This document shows, one piece after another, positions 11,764-20,134 of a stretch of 64,000 bases of DNA (within the stretch, counting starts at the first letter, position 1; the number at the start of each line of letters is the position of its first letter). The DNA comes from Escherichia coli. Its GTDB lineage: Bacteria > Pseudomonadota > Gammaproteobacteria > Enterobacterales > Enterobacteriaceae. The translations under genes and the position numbers were made by a program. A model generated the notes under the pieces. That model saw only the letters and a program-made list of their open reading frames with translations. It searched no databases and was not told the DNA's origin. The stretch is taken from assembly GCF_044324875.1 (NCBI RefSeq), contig NZ_CP172185.1. One strand, 5' to 3'.

Positions 11764-13131
11764 TTAATAAAATAGCGTGATAGTGGCAATCATATTCACC
11801 ACGAAACCGACTGCCATGGGGATCGCTGTCCGCTTCACTACCGCAAAAGGCGAAACGCCTGCAATTCCTGACGTAACGACCACCACCGCAGTAATCGGCG
11901 AAACAGCGCGCGCTAGCGTCGTGGCAAAATGCATCGGCATAATCATTACAACCGCTGGTACATGTAGTCCGGCTGCGATATTCGGAATAAGACTGGCAAA
12001 TGACATAAACGGCGCATTGCCTGAGCCCATCACAATGGCACAAATGGCAATGACCAGCGCCATAATAATCATCACGCCAATACCGCCCAGGCCAGAATGC
12101 TCCGCACCCCTGATAACCGCATCGACAGTGCCAATCGTCGTTAAGCCTTTCGCAAATATTTCACCCGCGACCACCAGCGTTACCACGTTGGCAAACTGCG
12201 TACCCATGCCGTCAAAAAACGCCTGCACATCGTCCATTGTTTCGCGCAAGTTATGCTTGCGGAAGAACTCAACAAACATCGTCACCGTCAAACTCAGTAA
12301 CATCACCACCACCAGATGCAGTTCTGACTGCATCAGCCCGACGTGGGCAAGGAACAGCGAGCCGAGCATCAGGATTAACGGCATCACAGGTAAAATGGCG
12401 TAATAGAGCGGCGGGACATTATCGAGAGCTTTTTGCTCTGCCTGTTCGTGATTGATATTTTTATCTTTTTTGTCGAAAGCGCGTTGCACGAAAAAGTGGG
12501 AGATCGCCACCGAGATAATGACGCAAGAGGCGACCGGAAGCTGGTAGTGGAAGAAGTAAGTGGCAATTTTCATTCCTGCTACCTGGGCAGCAAAAATGGA
12601 GTTCGTTTCCAGAATCCCCCACTCAATGGACATGGTGGTTGCGATAACCGCCACCGCAGAGAGACGACTTACTCCCAGACTCACCAGCGTCGGAAATAAG
12701 GTGACCATCAGCAACATACCCAGACCGGAGGCGCTGGTAATAAACTGCGCCATGATTTGGCCGATGACGTAAGTTGCCGACAGAATAATATACGGCGAGC
12801 GAATAAGTTTTAACGGGCGGCTTAACAAGCTCACCATCGCACGACTGGCCCCTATGCGCTCCATATAGCGGGCATAACCGCCCACTGCCATAATCGACAG
12901 CCCCAATCCGGCAATGCGGTTGGACAGCATGCGCAGGATTTCATTATAAATATCGACGATCAAGTAGCCGCTGCTTTTGGCGGGATCGAGCACACCACCG
13001 AACCCTAACCAGACACCGCACATCATCAGGAAGATACCTGCGGCAGCCAGCACCACCTGAGGTTTGTAGTTTTTCAGGATCAAATAGCCCATCGTAATTA
13101 ATACGATGACAGATATAATTATGCCGAACAT
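11764..13131 (-). CDS. dcuD: Anaerobic C4-dicarboxylate transporter (DcuC family) DcuD
   Basis: ORF 11764-13149; start taken at [25 protein letters not shown] (455 aa). Confidence 0.9.
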
Positions 13132-13510
13132 TGTTGAACTCCGTGTCAAAAGAAAACGGTCAATCCCATAAACGGCAGATTGAAAACAATGATGTTATAT
13201 TTTTTGCAAGGCTATTTATGGTGCGGATGTCGTGTTTTTAATTGTAGATGAGGTGATTTTTCATTAAAAAATATGCGCTTATGATTATTTTGTAAGAACA
13301 CATTCATAATATTCATAATACTTGTTAATAGTCTTATGAATAATTCAATCGGGATGTTTTTATCTGCGTTACATTAATTTTTCGCAATAGTTAATTATTC
13401 AGTTAATTATAGTAATGATGAGGCACAAAGAGAAAACCCCGCCATTTCCCCCTACTTTCAATCCTGTGATAGGATGTCACTGATGATGTTAATCACACTG
13501 ACCTTACAGA

Positions 13511-14302
13511 ATGGGCCTTATGAACGCATTTGATTCGCAAACCGAAGATTCTTCACCTGCAATTGGCCGCAACTTACGCAGCCGCCCGCTGGCGCGTAAA
13601 AAACTCTCCGAAATGGTGGAAGAAGAGCTGGAACAGATGATCCGCCGTCGTGAATTTGGCGAAGGTGAACAATTACCGTCTGAACGCGAGCTGATGGCGT
13701 TCTTTAACGTCGGGCGTCCTTCGGTGCGTGAAGCGCTGGCAGCGTTAAAACGCAAAGGTCTGGTGCAAATAAACAACGGCGAACGCGCTCGCGTCTCGCG
13801 TCCTTCTGCGGACACCATCATCGGCGAGCTTTCCGGTATGGCGAAAGATTTCCTTTCTCATCCTGGCGGGATTGCCCATTTCGAACAATTACGTCTGTTC
13901 TTTGAATCCAGCCTAGTGCGCTATGCGGCTGAACACGCCACCGATGAGCAAATCGATTTGCTGGCAAAAGCACTGGAAATCAACAGTCAGTCGCTGGATA
14001 ACAACGCGGCATTCATTCGTTCAGACGTTGATTTCCACCGCGTGCTGGCGGAGATCCCCGGTAACCCAATCTTCATGGCGATCCACGTTGCCCTGCTCGA
14101 CTGGCTGATCGCCGCACGTCCAACCGTGGCTGATCAGGCTCTGCACGAGCATAACAACGTTAGCTATCAACAGCATATTGCGATCGTTGATGCGATCCGC
14201 CGCCACGATCCCGATGAAGCCGATCGTGCGTTGCAATCGCATCTCAACAGCGTCTCTGCTACCTGGCACGCCTTCGGTCAGACCACCAACAAAAAGAAAT
14301 AA
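13511..14302 (+). CDS. nanR: GntR/FadR-family repressor NanR
   Basis: 263-aa [34 protein letters not shown]... Confidence 0.93.
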
Positions 14303-14365
14303 TGCCACTTTAGTGAAGCAGATCGCATTATAAGCTTTCTGTATGGGGTGTTGCTTAATTGATCT

Positions 14366-14388
14366 GGTATAACAGGTATAAAGGTATA
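14366..14388 (+). promoter_or_regulatory. NanR operator: three GGTATA repeats in the nanA promoter
   Basis: GGTATAACAGGTATAAAGGTATA directly upstream of nanA. Confidence 0.8.
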
Positions 14389-14423
14389 TCGTTTATCAGA
14401 CAAGCATCACTTCAGAGGTATTT

Positions 14424-15317
14424 ATGGCAACGAATTTACGTGGCGTAATGGCCGCACTCCTGACTCCTTTTGATCAACAACAAGCACTGGATAAAGCGAG
14501 TCTGCGTCGCCTGGTTCAGTTCAATATTAAGCAGGGCATCGACGGTTTATACGTGGGTGGTTCTACCGGCGAAGCCTTTGTACAAAGCCTTTCCGAGCGT
14601 GAACAGGTACTGGAAATCGTCGCCGAAGAGGCGAAAGGCAAGATTAAACTCATCGCCCACGTCGGTTGCGTCAGCACTGCTGAAAGCCAACAACTTGCGG
14701 CATCGGCTAAACGTTATGGCTTCGATGCCGTCTCCGCCGTCACGCCGTTCTACTATCCTTTCAGCTTTGAAGAACACTGCGATCACTATCGGGCAATTAT
14801 TGATTCGGCGGATGGTTTGCCGATGGTGGTGTACAACATTCCTGCCCTGAGCGGGGTAAAACTAACCCTGGATCAGATCAACACCCTGGTTACGCTGCCT
14901 GGTGTCGGCGTGCTGAAACAAACCTCTGGCGATCTCTATCAGATGGAGCAGATCCGTCGTGAACATCCGGATCTGGTGCTCTATAACGGTTACGACGAAA
15001 TTTTCGCCTCTGGTCTTCTGGCGGGCGCTGATGGTGGTATCGGTAGTACCTACAACATCATGGGCTGGCGTTATCAGGGTATTGTGAAGGCTCTGAAAGA
15101 AGGCGATATCCAGACCGCGCAGAAGCTGCAAACCGAATGTAATAAAGTCATTGATTTACTGATCAAAACGGGCGTATTCCGCGGCCTGAAAACGGTCCTG
15201 CATTATATGGATGTGGTGTCTGTGCCGCTGTGCCGCAAACCGTTTGGTCCGGTAGATGAAAAATATCTGCCAGAACTGAAGGCGCTGGCCCAGCAGTTGA
15301 TGCAAGAGCGCGGGTGA
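14424..15317 (+). CDS. nanA: N-acetylneuraminate lyase
   Basis: 297-aa [34 protein letters not shown]... Confidence 0.96.
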
Positions 15318-15425
15318 GTTGTTTCCCCTCGCTCGCCCCTACCGGGTGAGGGGAAATAAACGCATCTGTACCCTACAATTTTCATACCAAAGCGTGTGGG
15401 CATCGCCCACCGCGGGAGACTCACA

Positions 15426-16916
15426 ATGAGTACTACAACCCAGAATATCCCGTGGTATCGCCATCTCAACCGCGCACAATGGCGGGCATTTTCCGCTGCC
15501 TGGTTGGGATATCTGCTTGACGGTTTTGATTTCGTTTTAATCGCCCTGGTACTCACCGAAGTACAAGGTGAATTCGGGCTGACGACGGTACAGGCAGCAA
15601 GCCTGATCTCCGCAGCCTTTATCTCTCGCTGGTTCGGTGGCCTGATGCTCGGCGCTATGGGTGACCGCTACGGGCGTCGGCTGGCAATGGTCACCAGTAT
15701 CGTTCTCTTCTCGGTCGGGACGCTGGCCTGCGGTTTTGCGCCAGGCTACATCACCATGTTTATCGCGCGTCTGGTCATCGGCATGGAGATGGCGGGTGAA
15801 TACGGTTCCAGCGCTACCTATGTCATTGAAAGCTGGCCAAAACATCTGCGTAACAAAGCCAGTGGTTTTCTGATTTCAGGCTTCTCTGTGGGGGCCGTGG
15901 TTGCCGCTCAGGTCTATAGCCTGGTGGTTCCGGTCTGGGGCTGGCGTGCGCTGTTCTTTATCGGCATTTTGCCAATCATCTTTGCTCTCTGGCTGCGTAA
16001 AAACATCCCGGAAGCGGAAGACTGGAAAGAGAAACATGCAGGCAAAGCACCGGTACGCACAATGGTGGACATTCTCTACCGTGGTGAACATCGCATCGCC
16101 AATATCGTGATGACGCTGGCGGCAGCTACTGCGCTGTGGTTCTGCTTCGCCGGTAACCTGCAAAATGCCGCAATCGTCGCTGTACTCGGGCTGTTATGCG
16201 CCGCAATCTTTATCAGCTTTATGGTACAGAGTACGGGCAAACGCTGGCCAACGGGCGTAATGCTGATGGTGGTCGTGTTGTTTGCTTTCCTCTATTCATG
16301 GCCGATTCAGGCACTGCTGCCAACGTATCTTAAAACTGAACTTGCTTATAACCCGCATACTGTCGCCAATGTGCTGTTCTTTAGTGGCTTTGGTGCGGCG
16401 GTGGGGTGCTGCGTCGGTGGCTTCCTCGGTGACTGGCTGGGAACCCGCAAAGCGTACGTTTGCAGTCTGCTGGCCTCACAGCTGCTGATTATTCCGGTAT
16501 TTGCGATTGGTGGCGCAAACGTCTGGGTGCTCGGTCTGTTACTGTTCTTCCAGCAAATGCTTGGTCAGGGCATCTCCGGGATCTTACCGAAACTGATTGG
16601 CGGTTATTTTGATACCGACCAGCGTGCAGCGGGCCTGGGCTTTACCTACAACGTTGGCGCATTGGGCGGCGCACTGGCCCCAATCCTCGGCGCGTTGATC
16701 GCTCAACGTCTGGATCTGGGGACGGCACTGGGCTCGCTCTCGTTCAGTTTGACGTTTGTGGTGATCCTGCTGATTGGTCTGGATATGCCTTCTCGCGTTC
16801 AGCGTTGGCTGCGCCCGGAAGCGTTGCGTACTCATGACGCTATCGACGGCAAACCATTTAGCGGTGCCGTGCCGTTTGGCAGCGCCAAAAACGATTTAGT
16901 CAAAACCAAAAGTTAA
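15426..16916 (+). CDS. nanT: Sialic acid MFS transporter NanT
   Basis: ORF 15396-16916; start at ATG 15426 giving [22 protein letters not shown] (496 aa). Confidence 0.95.
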
Positions 16917-16963
16917 TCCTGTTGCCCGGTCTCTGTACCGGGCCTTTCGCTAAGGGAAGATGT

Positions 16964-17649
16964 ATGTCGTTACTTGCACAACTGGATCAAAAAATCGCTG
17001 CTAACGGTGGCCTGATTGTCTCCTGCCAGCCGGTCCCTGACAGCCCGCTCGATAAACCCGAAATCGTCGCCGCCATGGCATTAGCTGCAGAGCAGGCGGG
17101 TGCGGTCGCCATTCGCATTGAAGGTGTGGCAAATCTGCAAGCCACGCGTGCGGTGGTGAGCGTGCCGATTATCGGGATTGTAAAACGCGATCTGGAGGAT
17201 TCTCCGGTACGCATCACGGCCTATATTGAAGATGTTGATGCGCTGGCGCAGGTGGGCGCGGACATTATCGCGATTGACGGCACCGACCGACCGCGTCCGG
17301 TGCCTGTTGAAACGCTACTGGCACGTATCCACCATCACGGTTTACTGGCGATGACCGACTGCTCAACGCCGGAAGACGGTCTGGCATGCCAAAAGCTGGG
17401 AGCCGAAATTATTGGCACCACGCTTTCTGGCTATACCACACCTGAAACGCCAGAAGAGCCGGATCTGGCGCTGGTGAAAACGTTGAGTGACGCCGGATGT
17501 CGGGTGATTGCCGAAGGGCGTTACAACTCGCCTGCTCAGGCGGCAGATGCGATGCGCCACGGCGCGTGGGCGGTGACGGTCGGTTCTGCTATCACACGTC
17601 TTGAACACATTTGCCAGTGGTACAACACAGCGATGAAAAAGACGGTGCT

Positions 17650-17653
<4 letters not shown>
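16964..17653 (+). CDS. nanE: N-acetylmannosamine-6-phosphate 2-epimerase
   Basis: ORF 16922-17653; start at ATG 16964 giving [23 protein letters not shown] (229 aa). Confidence 0.93.
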
Positions 17654-18986
<1,333 letters not shown>

Positions 18987-19005
18987 AACTTAGTTCGTTT
19001 TAAAG

Positions 19006-19030
19006 ATTCTCCAGACAGTGTCTGGAGAAT
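19006..19030. repeat. 25-bp palindrome ATTCTCCAGACA-G-TGTCTGGAGAAT between convergent yhcH and yhcG; probable bidirectional terminator and member of a local palindromic repeat family
   Basis: Perfect 12-bp arms around a 1-nt centre, read directly. Confidence 0.6.
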
Positions 19031-19045
19031 TCGAAACCGCTGAAA

Positions 19046-20134
19046 TTAACGGCGTCTATAGCCTTCCTCTAGCACCGCCTGTGTTCGAACGAGTTCATCT
19101 GCGAGTCGTTTCTCATCAGGTAGTTGCATCTTATATTCGCTTGCCAGAACGGTGTTAGGCAAACCTGCCAGAGCATAATGCGCTTCGCCGGCTCCTTTCT
19201 CTGCACAGAGAATCAGACCGATGGGCGGATTTTCATCCGGTAGCGTCCAGTGATCTTTGGCGTAGTTGAGATACATATTCATCTGTCCGGCATCGCTATA
19301 GCTGAATTTGCCCACTTTTAGATCGACGATTAGCAGGCAGCATAAACGGCGGTGGAAAAACAGCAGATCGACACGAAACCAGTTATCATCAATGCGTAAC
19401 CTTCGCTGCCGACCAACAAAGGCAAAATCATCCCCAAGTTCCAGCATGAAATCCATCAGGTGGTTGATCAGCGCCTCCTCGAAATCAGATTCTGAATATT
19501 CATCTTTCAATTCCAGAAATTCGAGCACAAAGGGATCGCGTATCGCCTGCTGCGGAAGAATATGCGTCTCGGTAGGAGCGTGTTGTTGCAGCATGGCTGA
19601 TTTGTCATGTGACAGTAGTGTTCGCTCATAAAATTGGGTCGCAATTTGCCGCTCTAGCTGGCGAACAGACCAGCCACAGCGGAGCGTCTCTTTTTCATAA
19701 AAGCTACGAGCGTCAGCGTTTTTAACAGAAAGCAAACGGACGTAAGTGGACCAGGGCCGGGGGAAAGATTTGGCAGACAGCGTCTGCCAAATCTTTCCCG
19801 ATGGGAATTCTGCAGACGGTGTCTGCGGAATTTCAACATGTTGAAAAAAGAGGTAAAAAAGTCTCATTTGGCGCAAGTTTTTTGCAGAGAACCCACGCTT
19901 ATACCTTAGACATAAATCCTTTGATAGTCGCTTGATTAGCTGCGCACCATACGCAGCCCTGGCCTCGCCACCTTGTTCAAATTCGACAATTCGTCGGCCA
20001 ATTTCCCAGTATGTCGCGGTCATCAGCGCGTTAACGCTACGTACCGTTTCCGTCCGGGCGCTATCGACCAGGTGAATAATACCGTCGTGGATTTGCTGGT
20101 AGCCTGTTGAGGTTCTCTCTGAGAGCGATTCCAT
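19046..20134 (-). CDS. yhcG: YhcG, DUF1016 protein with predicted PD-(D/E)xK nuclease fold
   Basis: 362-aa ORF MESLSERTSTGYQQIHDGIIHLVDSARTETVRSVNALMTATYWEIGRRIVEFEQGG... Confidence 0.85.
   Translation of the reverse strand: MESLSERTSTGYQQIHDGIIHLVDSARTETVRSVNALMTATYWEIGRRIVEFEQGGEARAAYGAQLIKRLSKDLCLRYKRGFSAKNLRQMRLFYLFFQHVEIPQTPSAEFPSGKIWQTLSAKSFPRPWSTYVRLLSVKNADARSFYEKETLRCGWSVRQLERQIATQFYERTLLSHDKSAMLQQHAPTETHILPQQAIRDPFVLEFLELKDEYSESDFEEALINHLMDFMLELGDDFAFVGRQRRLRIDDNWFRVDLLFFHRRLCCLLIVDLKVGKFSYSDAGQMNMYLNYAKDHWTLPDENPPIGLILCAEKGAGEAHYALAGLPNTVLASEYKMQLPDEKRLADELVRTQAVLEEGYRRR
19761..19832. repeat. Two adjacent palindromic units inside the yhcG reading frame, related to the 19006-19030 palindrome
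   Basis: 19761-19799 perfect 18-bp arms around AGC (GGGAAAGATTTGGCAGAC/GTCTGCCAAATCTTTCCC); 19805-19832 imperfect copy GAATTCTGCAGACGGTGTCTGCGGAATT; shared core CAGAC(A/G)G(C/T)GTCTG. Confidence 0.6.

Follow-up and report, generated by a model that had tools for sequence, protein, structure and literature searches.

In the malE-malF paradigm, which is said to go back to Newbury et al. in 1987, intercistronic REP/BIME elements reportedly stabilise the mRNA of the upstream gene. REPs that lie no more than 15 nt from a stop codon stall ribosomes and reduce the expression of the upstream gene, according to the part of PMC12306157 that summarises Liang, Rudd & Deutscher (2015). Another kind of enterobacterial repeat is known under the three names BoxC, PIT element and TMECO; these are intrastrand-triplex repeats (Holder et al. 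2015, PMC4666352, where the earlier work of Bergler, Bachellier and Maher's group is cited), and a TMECO is built of a pyrimidine block and two purine blocks in the order CCCTCKCCC, GGGGAGAGGG and GGGTGAGGGG. MG1655 has 23 copies of TMECOs, all of them intergenic and including five inverted A+B pairs, and BoxC loci are unstable and unusually prone to rearrangement (PMC4666352). Intact PIT elements are without terminator activity in the passage of PMC4666352 that cites Maher and colleagues, and the published work found no regulatory role for BoxC/PIT (PMC4666352). In addition, Dar & Sorek described Rho-dependent transcripts that are trimmed back to a protective stem-loop lacking a U tract, with a rut site just downstream, such stem-loops giving protection against PNPase and RNase II. 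This paper discusses a stem-loop between nanA and nanT, two genes of the nan (sialic acid catabolism) operon, in relation to these systems.

The DNA analysed, hereafter called the window, is a stretch of 64,000 nt, and its nanA-nanT region is that of Escherichia coli: the 231 nt around the stem-loop (hairpin 1) are matched in 5409 of 5426 complete E. coli genomes, and K-12 is 99.6% identical to the window over these 231 nt. The genes of the region and the spacer are as follows (window positions):

13511-14302, plus strand: nanR
14424-15317, plus strand: nanA CDS, N-acetylneuraminate lyase, 297 aa (ORF list; RefSeq annotation of the 99.6%-identical K-12 region)
15315-15317, plus strand: nanA stop codon TGA
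15318-15425: nanA-nanT spacer, 108 nt
15426-16916, plus strand: nanT CDS, sialic acid transporter, 496 aa (sequence, ORF list and K-12 annotation)
16964-17653, plus strand: nanE
17650-18525, plus strand: nanK
18522-18986, plus strand: nanQ/yhcH

K-12 positions are converted to window positions (x) by x = 15317 + (3372683 - K-12 position). NC_000913.3 has no annotated feature of any kind, repeat features included, in the nanA-nanT spacer, and the literature gave no usable account of a stem-loop or terminator between nanA and nanT, of nan Northern blots or of per-gene nan RNA-seq values. The comparative set consists of the nanA regions of 80 enterobacterial species representatives, which together with the window make 81 sequences, and their spacers were extracted and folded; nanT follows nanA in all 80 representatives. 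Within E. coli the spacer is intact, that is, the alignment covers at least 80% of the 231-nt query, in 5408 of the 5409 genomes. The exception is E. coli strain 01G17CRGN001 (L159, 2501-2540), where the query aligns over its first 38 nt only and RefSeq annotates both genes as pseudogenes, nanA without its C-terminus and nanT without its N-terminus; alignment and annotation together suggest that the spacer was lost there by deletion. Natural variants were also sought in metagenomes: of the 74 loci obtained, 72 are the nanA-nanT spacer, 60 have the window's allele and none brings a new substitution into the core stem of hairpin 1.

Hairpin 1 and a direct repeat that overlaps it are placed around the nanA stop codon:

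15311-15318, plus strand: upstream copy of CGGGTGAG, made up of the last sense codon (GGG for Gly), the stop codon TGA and one more G
15319-15359, plus strand: hairpin 1, with 5' arm 15319-15335, loop 15336-15342 and 3' arm 15343-15359 (by folding)
15343-15350, plus strand: downstream copy of CGGGTGAG, in the 3' arm of hairpin 1, inside CCGGGTGAGGGG

A first-pass annotation of this DNA had reported a stem-loop between nanA and nanT, formed by TTTCCCCTC at 15322-15330 and GAGGGGAAA at 15348-15356 with 17 nt between them, and both the stem-loop and its coordinates proved exact. The 9-bp inverted repeat is real, but the 17-nt loop is not, most of its nucleotides being paired through G-C and G.U and the true loop being 7 nt long (CCCCUAC). 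The RNA structure prediction suggested as a check gives a very stable hairpin, larger than first described, with a core of 14 bp (15322-15335 with 15343-15356) and 17 bp in total (15319-15359). Its folding energy is -26.8 kcal/mol, while shuffled sequences have a mean of -11.0 (sd 2.5; z = -6.4) and none of 200 shuffles is as stable. The opposite strand reaches only -17.6 kcal/mol (z = -2.5) because the G.U pairs turn into A.C there, and this strand asymmetry therefore favours an RNA structure of the sense strand, that is, of the nan mRNA. When all 45-nt windows on both strands of the 64-kb window are ranked by stability, hairpin 1 is the sixth entry and the fifth locus, and its neighbours in this ranking are true terminators and REP elements. 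First in the 64-kb window is the local fold at 19756-19801, a near-perfect 18-bp palindrome, GGGAAAGAUUUGGCAGAC...GUCUGCCAAAUCUUUCCC, with about -32 kcal/mol on both strands. The stem of hairpin 1 begins at 15319 and its core at 15322, that is, 1-4 nt past the nanA stop codon, which ends at 15317; this is a stop-proximal position by the measure of 15 nt or less from the stop codon.

The arms of hairpin 1 consist of blocks known from the BoxC/PIT/TMECO family. The 3' arm, CCGGGTGAGGGG, equals loop 2 plus block 3 of a type-B TMECO unit with one G fewer than CCGGGGTGAGGGG (PMC4666352, Table 1), the 5' arm of E. albertii, CCCTCACCCG, is complementary without a mismatch to CGGGTGAGGG of the 3' arm, and in a comparison of block identity hairpin 1 agrees with the members of the family. 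The three blocks of a TMECO are not all there: the middle purine block GGGGAGAGGG is absent and the outer blocks alone are left, therefore hairpin 1 has no three-block triplex motif and is a plain hairpin only. Intact inverted BoxC pairs stand directly after the nanA stop in Pseudocitrobacter faecalis (L009) and Enterobacter sp. kpr-6 (L047), where the unit is of the type CCCTCTCCC-N-GGGAGAGGG-TTA/CCG-GGGTGAGGGG; the Kluyvera spacer has retained the inner hairpin and GGGTAAGGGGAAAT, and that of P. vendiensis (L010) contains four or five BoxC units. In P. vendiensis the spacer (L010, 3889-4297) has grown to 403 nt via four or five tandem BoxC-containing units of ~80 nt, a striking local amplification inside an operon. 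Pairwise alignments of the Escherichia spacers with L009 and the Kluyvera spacer L011 (the two that the flank comparison covered) give common flanks, GTTnTT on the left and AAACGCATC plus TTCATACCAAAGCG on the right, and in the alignment with L009 the Escherichia arms fall on the outermost blocks of the intact inverted pair.

Copies of the BoxC unit are scattered over E. coli genomes, which have a median of at least 17 such places each, the cpsG-wcaJ spacer being one example; the K-12 cpsG-wcaJ region has no repeat annotation naming the BoxC family, and the name is taken from PMC4666352. The 47-nt hairpin 1 query gives a median of one place per E. coli genome in BLAST, that is, hairpin 1 is single-copy, and its site is not found among the 23 TMECOs of MG1655 (PMC4666352). 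Being absent from these 23 and lacking the middle purine block, hairpin 1 is therefore a relic of the family and not a member of it. Judged by the sequence comparisons, the arms of hairpin 1 derive from an inverted BoxC/PIT/TMECO pair, and we count this ancestry among the points that the analysis has demonstrated. Such an inverted pair would once have been situated directly 3' of the nanA stop and would have lost its interior, the complementary outer blocks CCCTCRCYCG ... CGGGTGAGGG being what remains of it. The first description of the stem-loop was right in what it saw but overlooked this origin from a dispersed repeat. Identification of hairpin 1 as a REP or another multi-copy element was also considered and rejected, hairpin 1 being single-copy and the E. 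coli spacer having no REP consensus (of the GCCGGATG...CTTATCCGGCCTAC type). Against Rfam, 13000-19500 gave no match at the spacer even at permissive E-values, and three chance-level matches elsewhere (E = 1.7 or worse).

With regard to the direct repeat, the first-pass annotation had noticed a duplicated motif, and CGGGTGAG does occur at both 15311-15318 and 15343-15350. Of dinucleotide-shuffled versions of the 66-nt segment, 0.9% contain an exact non-overlapping direct repeat of at least 8 nt, in a test that was chosen after the repeat had been seen, and the upstream copy hinges on the Escherichia-specific codon choice GGG TGA. A supply of the nanA stop codon by the BoxC element was considered as well and rejected, for relatives encode the QERG* C-terminus with GGT TAA and GGC TGA, too. 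The last codons of nanA (CGCGGGTGAG in Escherichia and CGGGGCTGAG in Pseudocitrobacter, L009) resemble the third block of the BoxC unit downstream, CCGGGGTGAGGG, and this likeness may come from microhomology at the insertion site or from a small gene conversion.

For variation within Escherichia, seven representatives of species or clades were compared, along with the variants of the 74 metagenome contigs. The 3' arm of hairpin 1 is invariant, and in the core of the 5' arm all four variable sites keep pairing (two C>U changes facing a G, one G>A facing a U and one U>C facing a G), for which the chance probability is ~0.02 by a rough estimate. Of the cells, 95.9% pair; most of the other Escherichia lineages have no pair at 15321-15357, the third counted from the base, and other lineages do not maintain the outer three bp. 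Covariation support is nil by the shuffle control, in which 413 of 500 shuffles reach the observed value, and the spacer outside hairpin 1 is about as conserved as hairpin 1 itself. The variation is compatible with a conserved structure of hairpin 1 and is no proof of it.

Outside Escherichia, the position directly after nanA is usually occupied by a hairpin. One of -14 kcal/mol or below starts within 30 nt past the nanA stop in 68 of the 81 sequences and within 15 nt in 60 of them, and a U tract follows the orthologous hairpins in none of the 81. Classified by loose motif patterns, 51 of the 81 spacers contain REP/BIME-like sequence (including Salmonella, Citrobacter, Enterobacter and Lelliottia), 12 are BoxC-like and 18 have neither motif, these last containing mostly other palindromes (Raoultella, Edwardsiella, Phytobacter, Leclercia and others), with only weaker ones in Buttiauxella. 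The hairpins are non-homologous across genera, and at least five unrelated types are found at the same position. Two Trabulsiella species and one Enterobacter (L046, L048 and L030) have short spacers and no such hairpin, therefore the post-nanA hairpin is dispensable. This pattern fits either selection for a hairpin at the junction or the known preference of repeats for stop-adjacent sites, and it does not separate the two.

Mapped RNA 3' ends of the operon come from the TRS re-analysis (PMC10687069) of the Term-seq data of Dar & Sorek (BW25113, LB), which lists 3372582 (nanA), 3371052 (nanT) and 3368963 (nanQ) on the K-12 minus strand; in window coordinates these termini are 15418, 16948 and 19037, and each lies 5-6 nt past a hairpin without a U tract. 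The features concerned, together with a motif between the two hairpins of the nanA-nanT spacer, are the following:

15371-15378, plus strand: CCCTACAA motif between the two hairpins, presumed single-stranded (from right-aligned spacers)
15392-15413, plus strand: hairpin 2, GCG-U-GUGGGC AUC GCCCAC-CGC (folding, -16.3 kcal/mol)
15411-15421, plus strand: mapped steady-state RNA 3' terminus, dominant at 15418 (TRS; K-12 3372582 on the minus strand, peak 3372579-3372589)
16924-16943, plus strand: nanT-nanE spacer hairpin GCCCGGU...ACCGGGC, with the 3' terminus 16948 (K-12 3371052) 5 nt after it
19005-19031, plus strand: operon-end hairpin after nanQ/yhcH, with the 3' terminus 19037 (K-12 3368963)

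The nanA terminus at 15418 has a signal of 0.94 with adjusted p values of 1e-35, 2e-19 and 4e-30. It falls within the nanT Shine-Dalgarno sequence GGGAG (15414-15418), which is directly abutted by the 3' edge of hairpin 2, and lies 5 nt past 15413; a steady-state 3' end a few nt past the stem is found for hairpin 2 and not for hairpin 1. In Term-seq of the junction, which the first-pass annotation had named as a check, the only terminus called in the spacer is the one at 15418 after hairpin 2, and none is listed at hairpin 1. The TRS sheet has no 3' end between K-12 3372582 and 3376243, hence none at hairpin 1, within the limit that the method could mask a minor peak: a weaker peak at ~15362 would be masked because TRS compares the local count with the next 67 nt, which include the 15418 peak. 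Among other data sets, the TERMITe and SMRT-Cappable-seq tables have no nan entries, nan termini are absent from the LB sheets of Dar & Sorek themselves, and the 3'-end tables of Adams et al. (2021) have no terminus in the nanA-nanT spacer, just one inside nanA. The nan termini are found in only one of the data sets consulted, and the operon is poorly expressed in the conditions of the data sets that lack them. The nanA-internal end of Adams et al. (2021) is a strong one, 45 nt into the reading frame at window 14469 (K-12 3373531, minus strand), and suggests that, in non-inducing conditions, transcription pauses or ends prematurely where the operon begins.

Hairpin 2 is common to Escherichia, Kluyvera, Pseudocitrobacter, Raoultella, Phytobacter, Leclercia, Silvania, Siccibacter, Buttiauxella and others. 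Over 25 distinct sequences, 148 of the 150 cells of its inner 6-bp helix are paired. At four of the six positions both partners vary (GC/AU/GU, UA/CG, GC/AU and CG/UA/GC), so that hairpin 2 has real covariation, with compensatory changes, across genera, and the slid controls all fall to 34-42% paired. Of the two hairpins in the nanA-nanT spacer, hairpin 2 is on this comparison the one better supported as a functional RNA element and, marking the mapped nanA 3' end, it is therefore the likelier determinant of any excess of nanA over nanT mRNA. The C/G ratio is 1.7-1.8 over 15400-15497, above the 95th percentile of the window, the first ~70 nt of nanT being C-rich and G-poor; transcription might be terminated by Rho early in nanT and the transcript then trimmed back to hairpin 2, which would give the 3' end at 15418. 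The broader idea of the first-pass annotation, that RNA structure in this spacer accompanies transcripts which accumulate with ends before nanT, stands, but the data point to hairpin 2 and not to hairpin 1. The hairpin between nanT and nanE is kept in Escherichia, Kluyvera, Citrobacter, Salmonella and Raoultella, and other genera are almost without a nanT-nanE spacer. The CCCTACAA motif recurs, with differing surroundings, in at least five further genus-level groups (Atlantibacter, Siccibacter, Leclercia, Silvania and 'Enterobacter' pulveris) and in L063, which is labelled Citrobacter freundii. At its E. coli site TACAAT resembles a -10 hexamer and ACAA/UUUU resembles an RNase E site.

As for function, the reading that we prefer, and to which we give about an even chance, is that hairpin 1 is a decayed inverted BoxC pair which does not terminate transcription and acts at most as a passive REP-like barrier or as a structure that slows ribosomes. 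It has the structure expected of a REP-like stabiliser, namely a stable hairpin lacking a U tract directly after the upstream cistron and within an operon, and the mRNA stabiliser setting differential expression which the first-pass annotation had proposed is plausible by analogy, as it fits the REP paradigm and unrelated hairpins are found in the same slot in most Enterobacteriaceae. Any 3'->5' exonuclease meets hairpin 2 before hairpin 1; hairpin 1 might be a second-line block to such enzymes once they are past hairpin 2 and would then protect the nanA reading frame. With a stem that starts 1-4 nt past the stop codon, it may also slow the terminating ribosome at the nanA stop. Nearly as likely as passive REP-like activity is a purely neutral relic, which we entertain tentatively: leftover repeat DNA would be without effect on nan expression and would persist as Escherichia is young and most of the changes are transitions that keep G.U pairing. 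The nil covariation signal, the about equal conservation of the spacer outside hairpin 1, a BoxC family without a demonstrated regulatory role (PMC4666352), the genera without any hairpin at the slot and the colonisation of many permissive spacers by REP-type elements all agree with neutrality, whereas it accords poorly with the presence of at least five unrelated hairpin types in this slot, most of them no more than 15 nt from the stop (68 of 81 sequences), with an invariant 3' arm and four of four 5'-arm changes that keep the pair, and with a hairpin of -27 kcal/mol located 1-4 nt past a stop, which is unlikely to be invisible to ribosomes and exonucleases. The same stop-proximal geometry would suit a brake on translation termination, by which the ribosome has to melt the stem at UGA and its stalling leads to mRNA cleavage, tmRNA tagging and less NanA, as for stop-close REPs. 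The stem 1-4 nt after UGA, the 15-nt rule for REPs in the part of PMC12306157 concerned and the 60 of 81 orthologous hairpins that start within 15 nt of the stop speak for such a brake; however, the effect has been demonstrated for canonical REPs only, NanA is expected to be needed in excess, so that lowering it is not obviously useful, and the insertion preference of REPs alone could explain the stop proximity. We consider the brake improbable. Doubtful, too, though less so than the brake, is a more elaborate proposal: selection at the nanA-nanT junction would favour a strong hairpin of whatever kind, as long as it lacks a U tract and stands no more than ~15 nt from the stop, and the slot would repeatedly be filled by captured selfish palindromic repeats (BoxC in Escherichia, Pseudocitrobacter and Kluyvera, REP/BIME in Salmonella, Citrobacter and Enterobacter, and other palindromes elsewhere), and together with hairpin 2 and Rho termination early in nanT this hairpin would form a two-tier device that sets the NanA:NanT ratio.

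Transcription termination by hairpin 1 is very unlikely, and the partial terminator of the first-pass annotation, that is, an intrinsic terminator by which hairpin 1 attenuates read-through into nanT, is not supported. It is true that hairpin 1 is a strong GC-rich stem-loop (17 bp, -26.8 kcal/mol) like that of intrinsic terminators, that it is located in an intercistronic spacer and that Term-seq has some transcripts ending in this spacer. However, the 8 nt 3' of the stem, AACGCAUC, contain a single U and are not a U tract, the promoter/terminator consensus scan made no call at hairpin 1, the called 3' end is 59 nt further downstream at hairpin 2, PIT/BoxC elements are without terminator activity in the relevant passage of PMC4666352, and none of the 81 orthologous hairpins has a U tract; the chance left to a terminator is accordingly very small. 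Least probable of all is that DNA rather than RNA matters, in the form of a binding or promoter element for nanT or of a recombination-prone palindrome. Genomic SELEX, which screens fragments of genomic DNA for binding in vitro, gave an RNA polymerase-sigma54 peak of 46% intensity with the reported position 3,370,654; it was assigned to the nanA-nanT spacer, and from it the authors predicted a constitutive promoter for nanTEK-yhcH (PMC8743547), and BoxC loci are reported to be unstable (PMC4666352). This RpoN holoenzyme peak and this instability favour a role of the DNA; on the other hand, a sigma54 consensus search of the spacer found no convincing site, matches with 2-3 mismatches being no commoner than chance, the strand asymmetry based on G.U pairs favours a structure at the RNA level, and the spacer is intact in 5408 of 5409 E. 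coli genomes.

The importance of these findings is modest, since hairpin 1 is an ordinary, degenerate relative of a known kind of repeat. The nan operon nevertheless gains a post-transcriptional map, with a hairpin at every cistron boundary that has a spacer and with mapped 3' ends at three of them, and the tempting label of terminator on the most conspicuous hairpin is corrected. For the engineering of nanA and nanT and for the reading of Term-seq and RNA-seq data, it is hairpin 2 and not hairpin 1 that marks the mapped 3' end. In addition, the locus is a clean case of a BoxC repeat decaying to a plain hairpin and of one intercistronic slot occupied by different repeat families in different genera, and the way this slot is filled is relevant to a long-standing debate, in which REP-type repeats are seen either as domesticated regulators or as tolerated parasites.

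When hairpin 1 is set beside the known systems, the likeness to intrinsic (Rho-independent) terminators is confined to the GC-rich stem-loop, from which hairpin 1 differs in having no U tract and no listed 3' end. It is much closer to the BoxC/PIT/TMECO repeats, with which it has in common the blocks CCCTCRCCC and CGGGTGAGGGG, an intergenic site, the layout of an inverted pair, intact copies in the same slot (Pseudocitrobacter and Enterobacter sp. kpr-6) and the local rearrangement of the family, but it lacks the middle purine block, is unlisted in MG1655 and is single-copy. With the REP/BIME elements of malE-malF it shares a GC-rich hairpin without a U tract that stands inside an operon, directly past the stop of its first cistron; in both cases the upstream gene encodes a soluble protein and the downstream gene a membrane transporter, and in Salmonella, Citrobacter and Enterobacter the orthologous slot holds REP-like elements. 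It differs from them in that it has no REP consensus and is single-copy and that a second hairpin downstream bears the mapped 3' end. Like the stop-proximal REPs that stall ribosomes, hairpin 1 is a stable palindrome starting no more than 15 nt (here 1-4 nt) from the stop, although it is not a REP. Lastly, it resembles the protective stem-loops of Dar & Sorek as a stable stem-loop lacking a U tract and differs from them in having no listed terminus, while this class of stem-loops accounts for the mapped nan termini after hairpin 2, nanT and nanQ.
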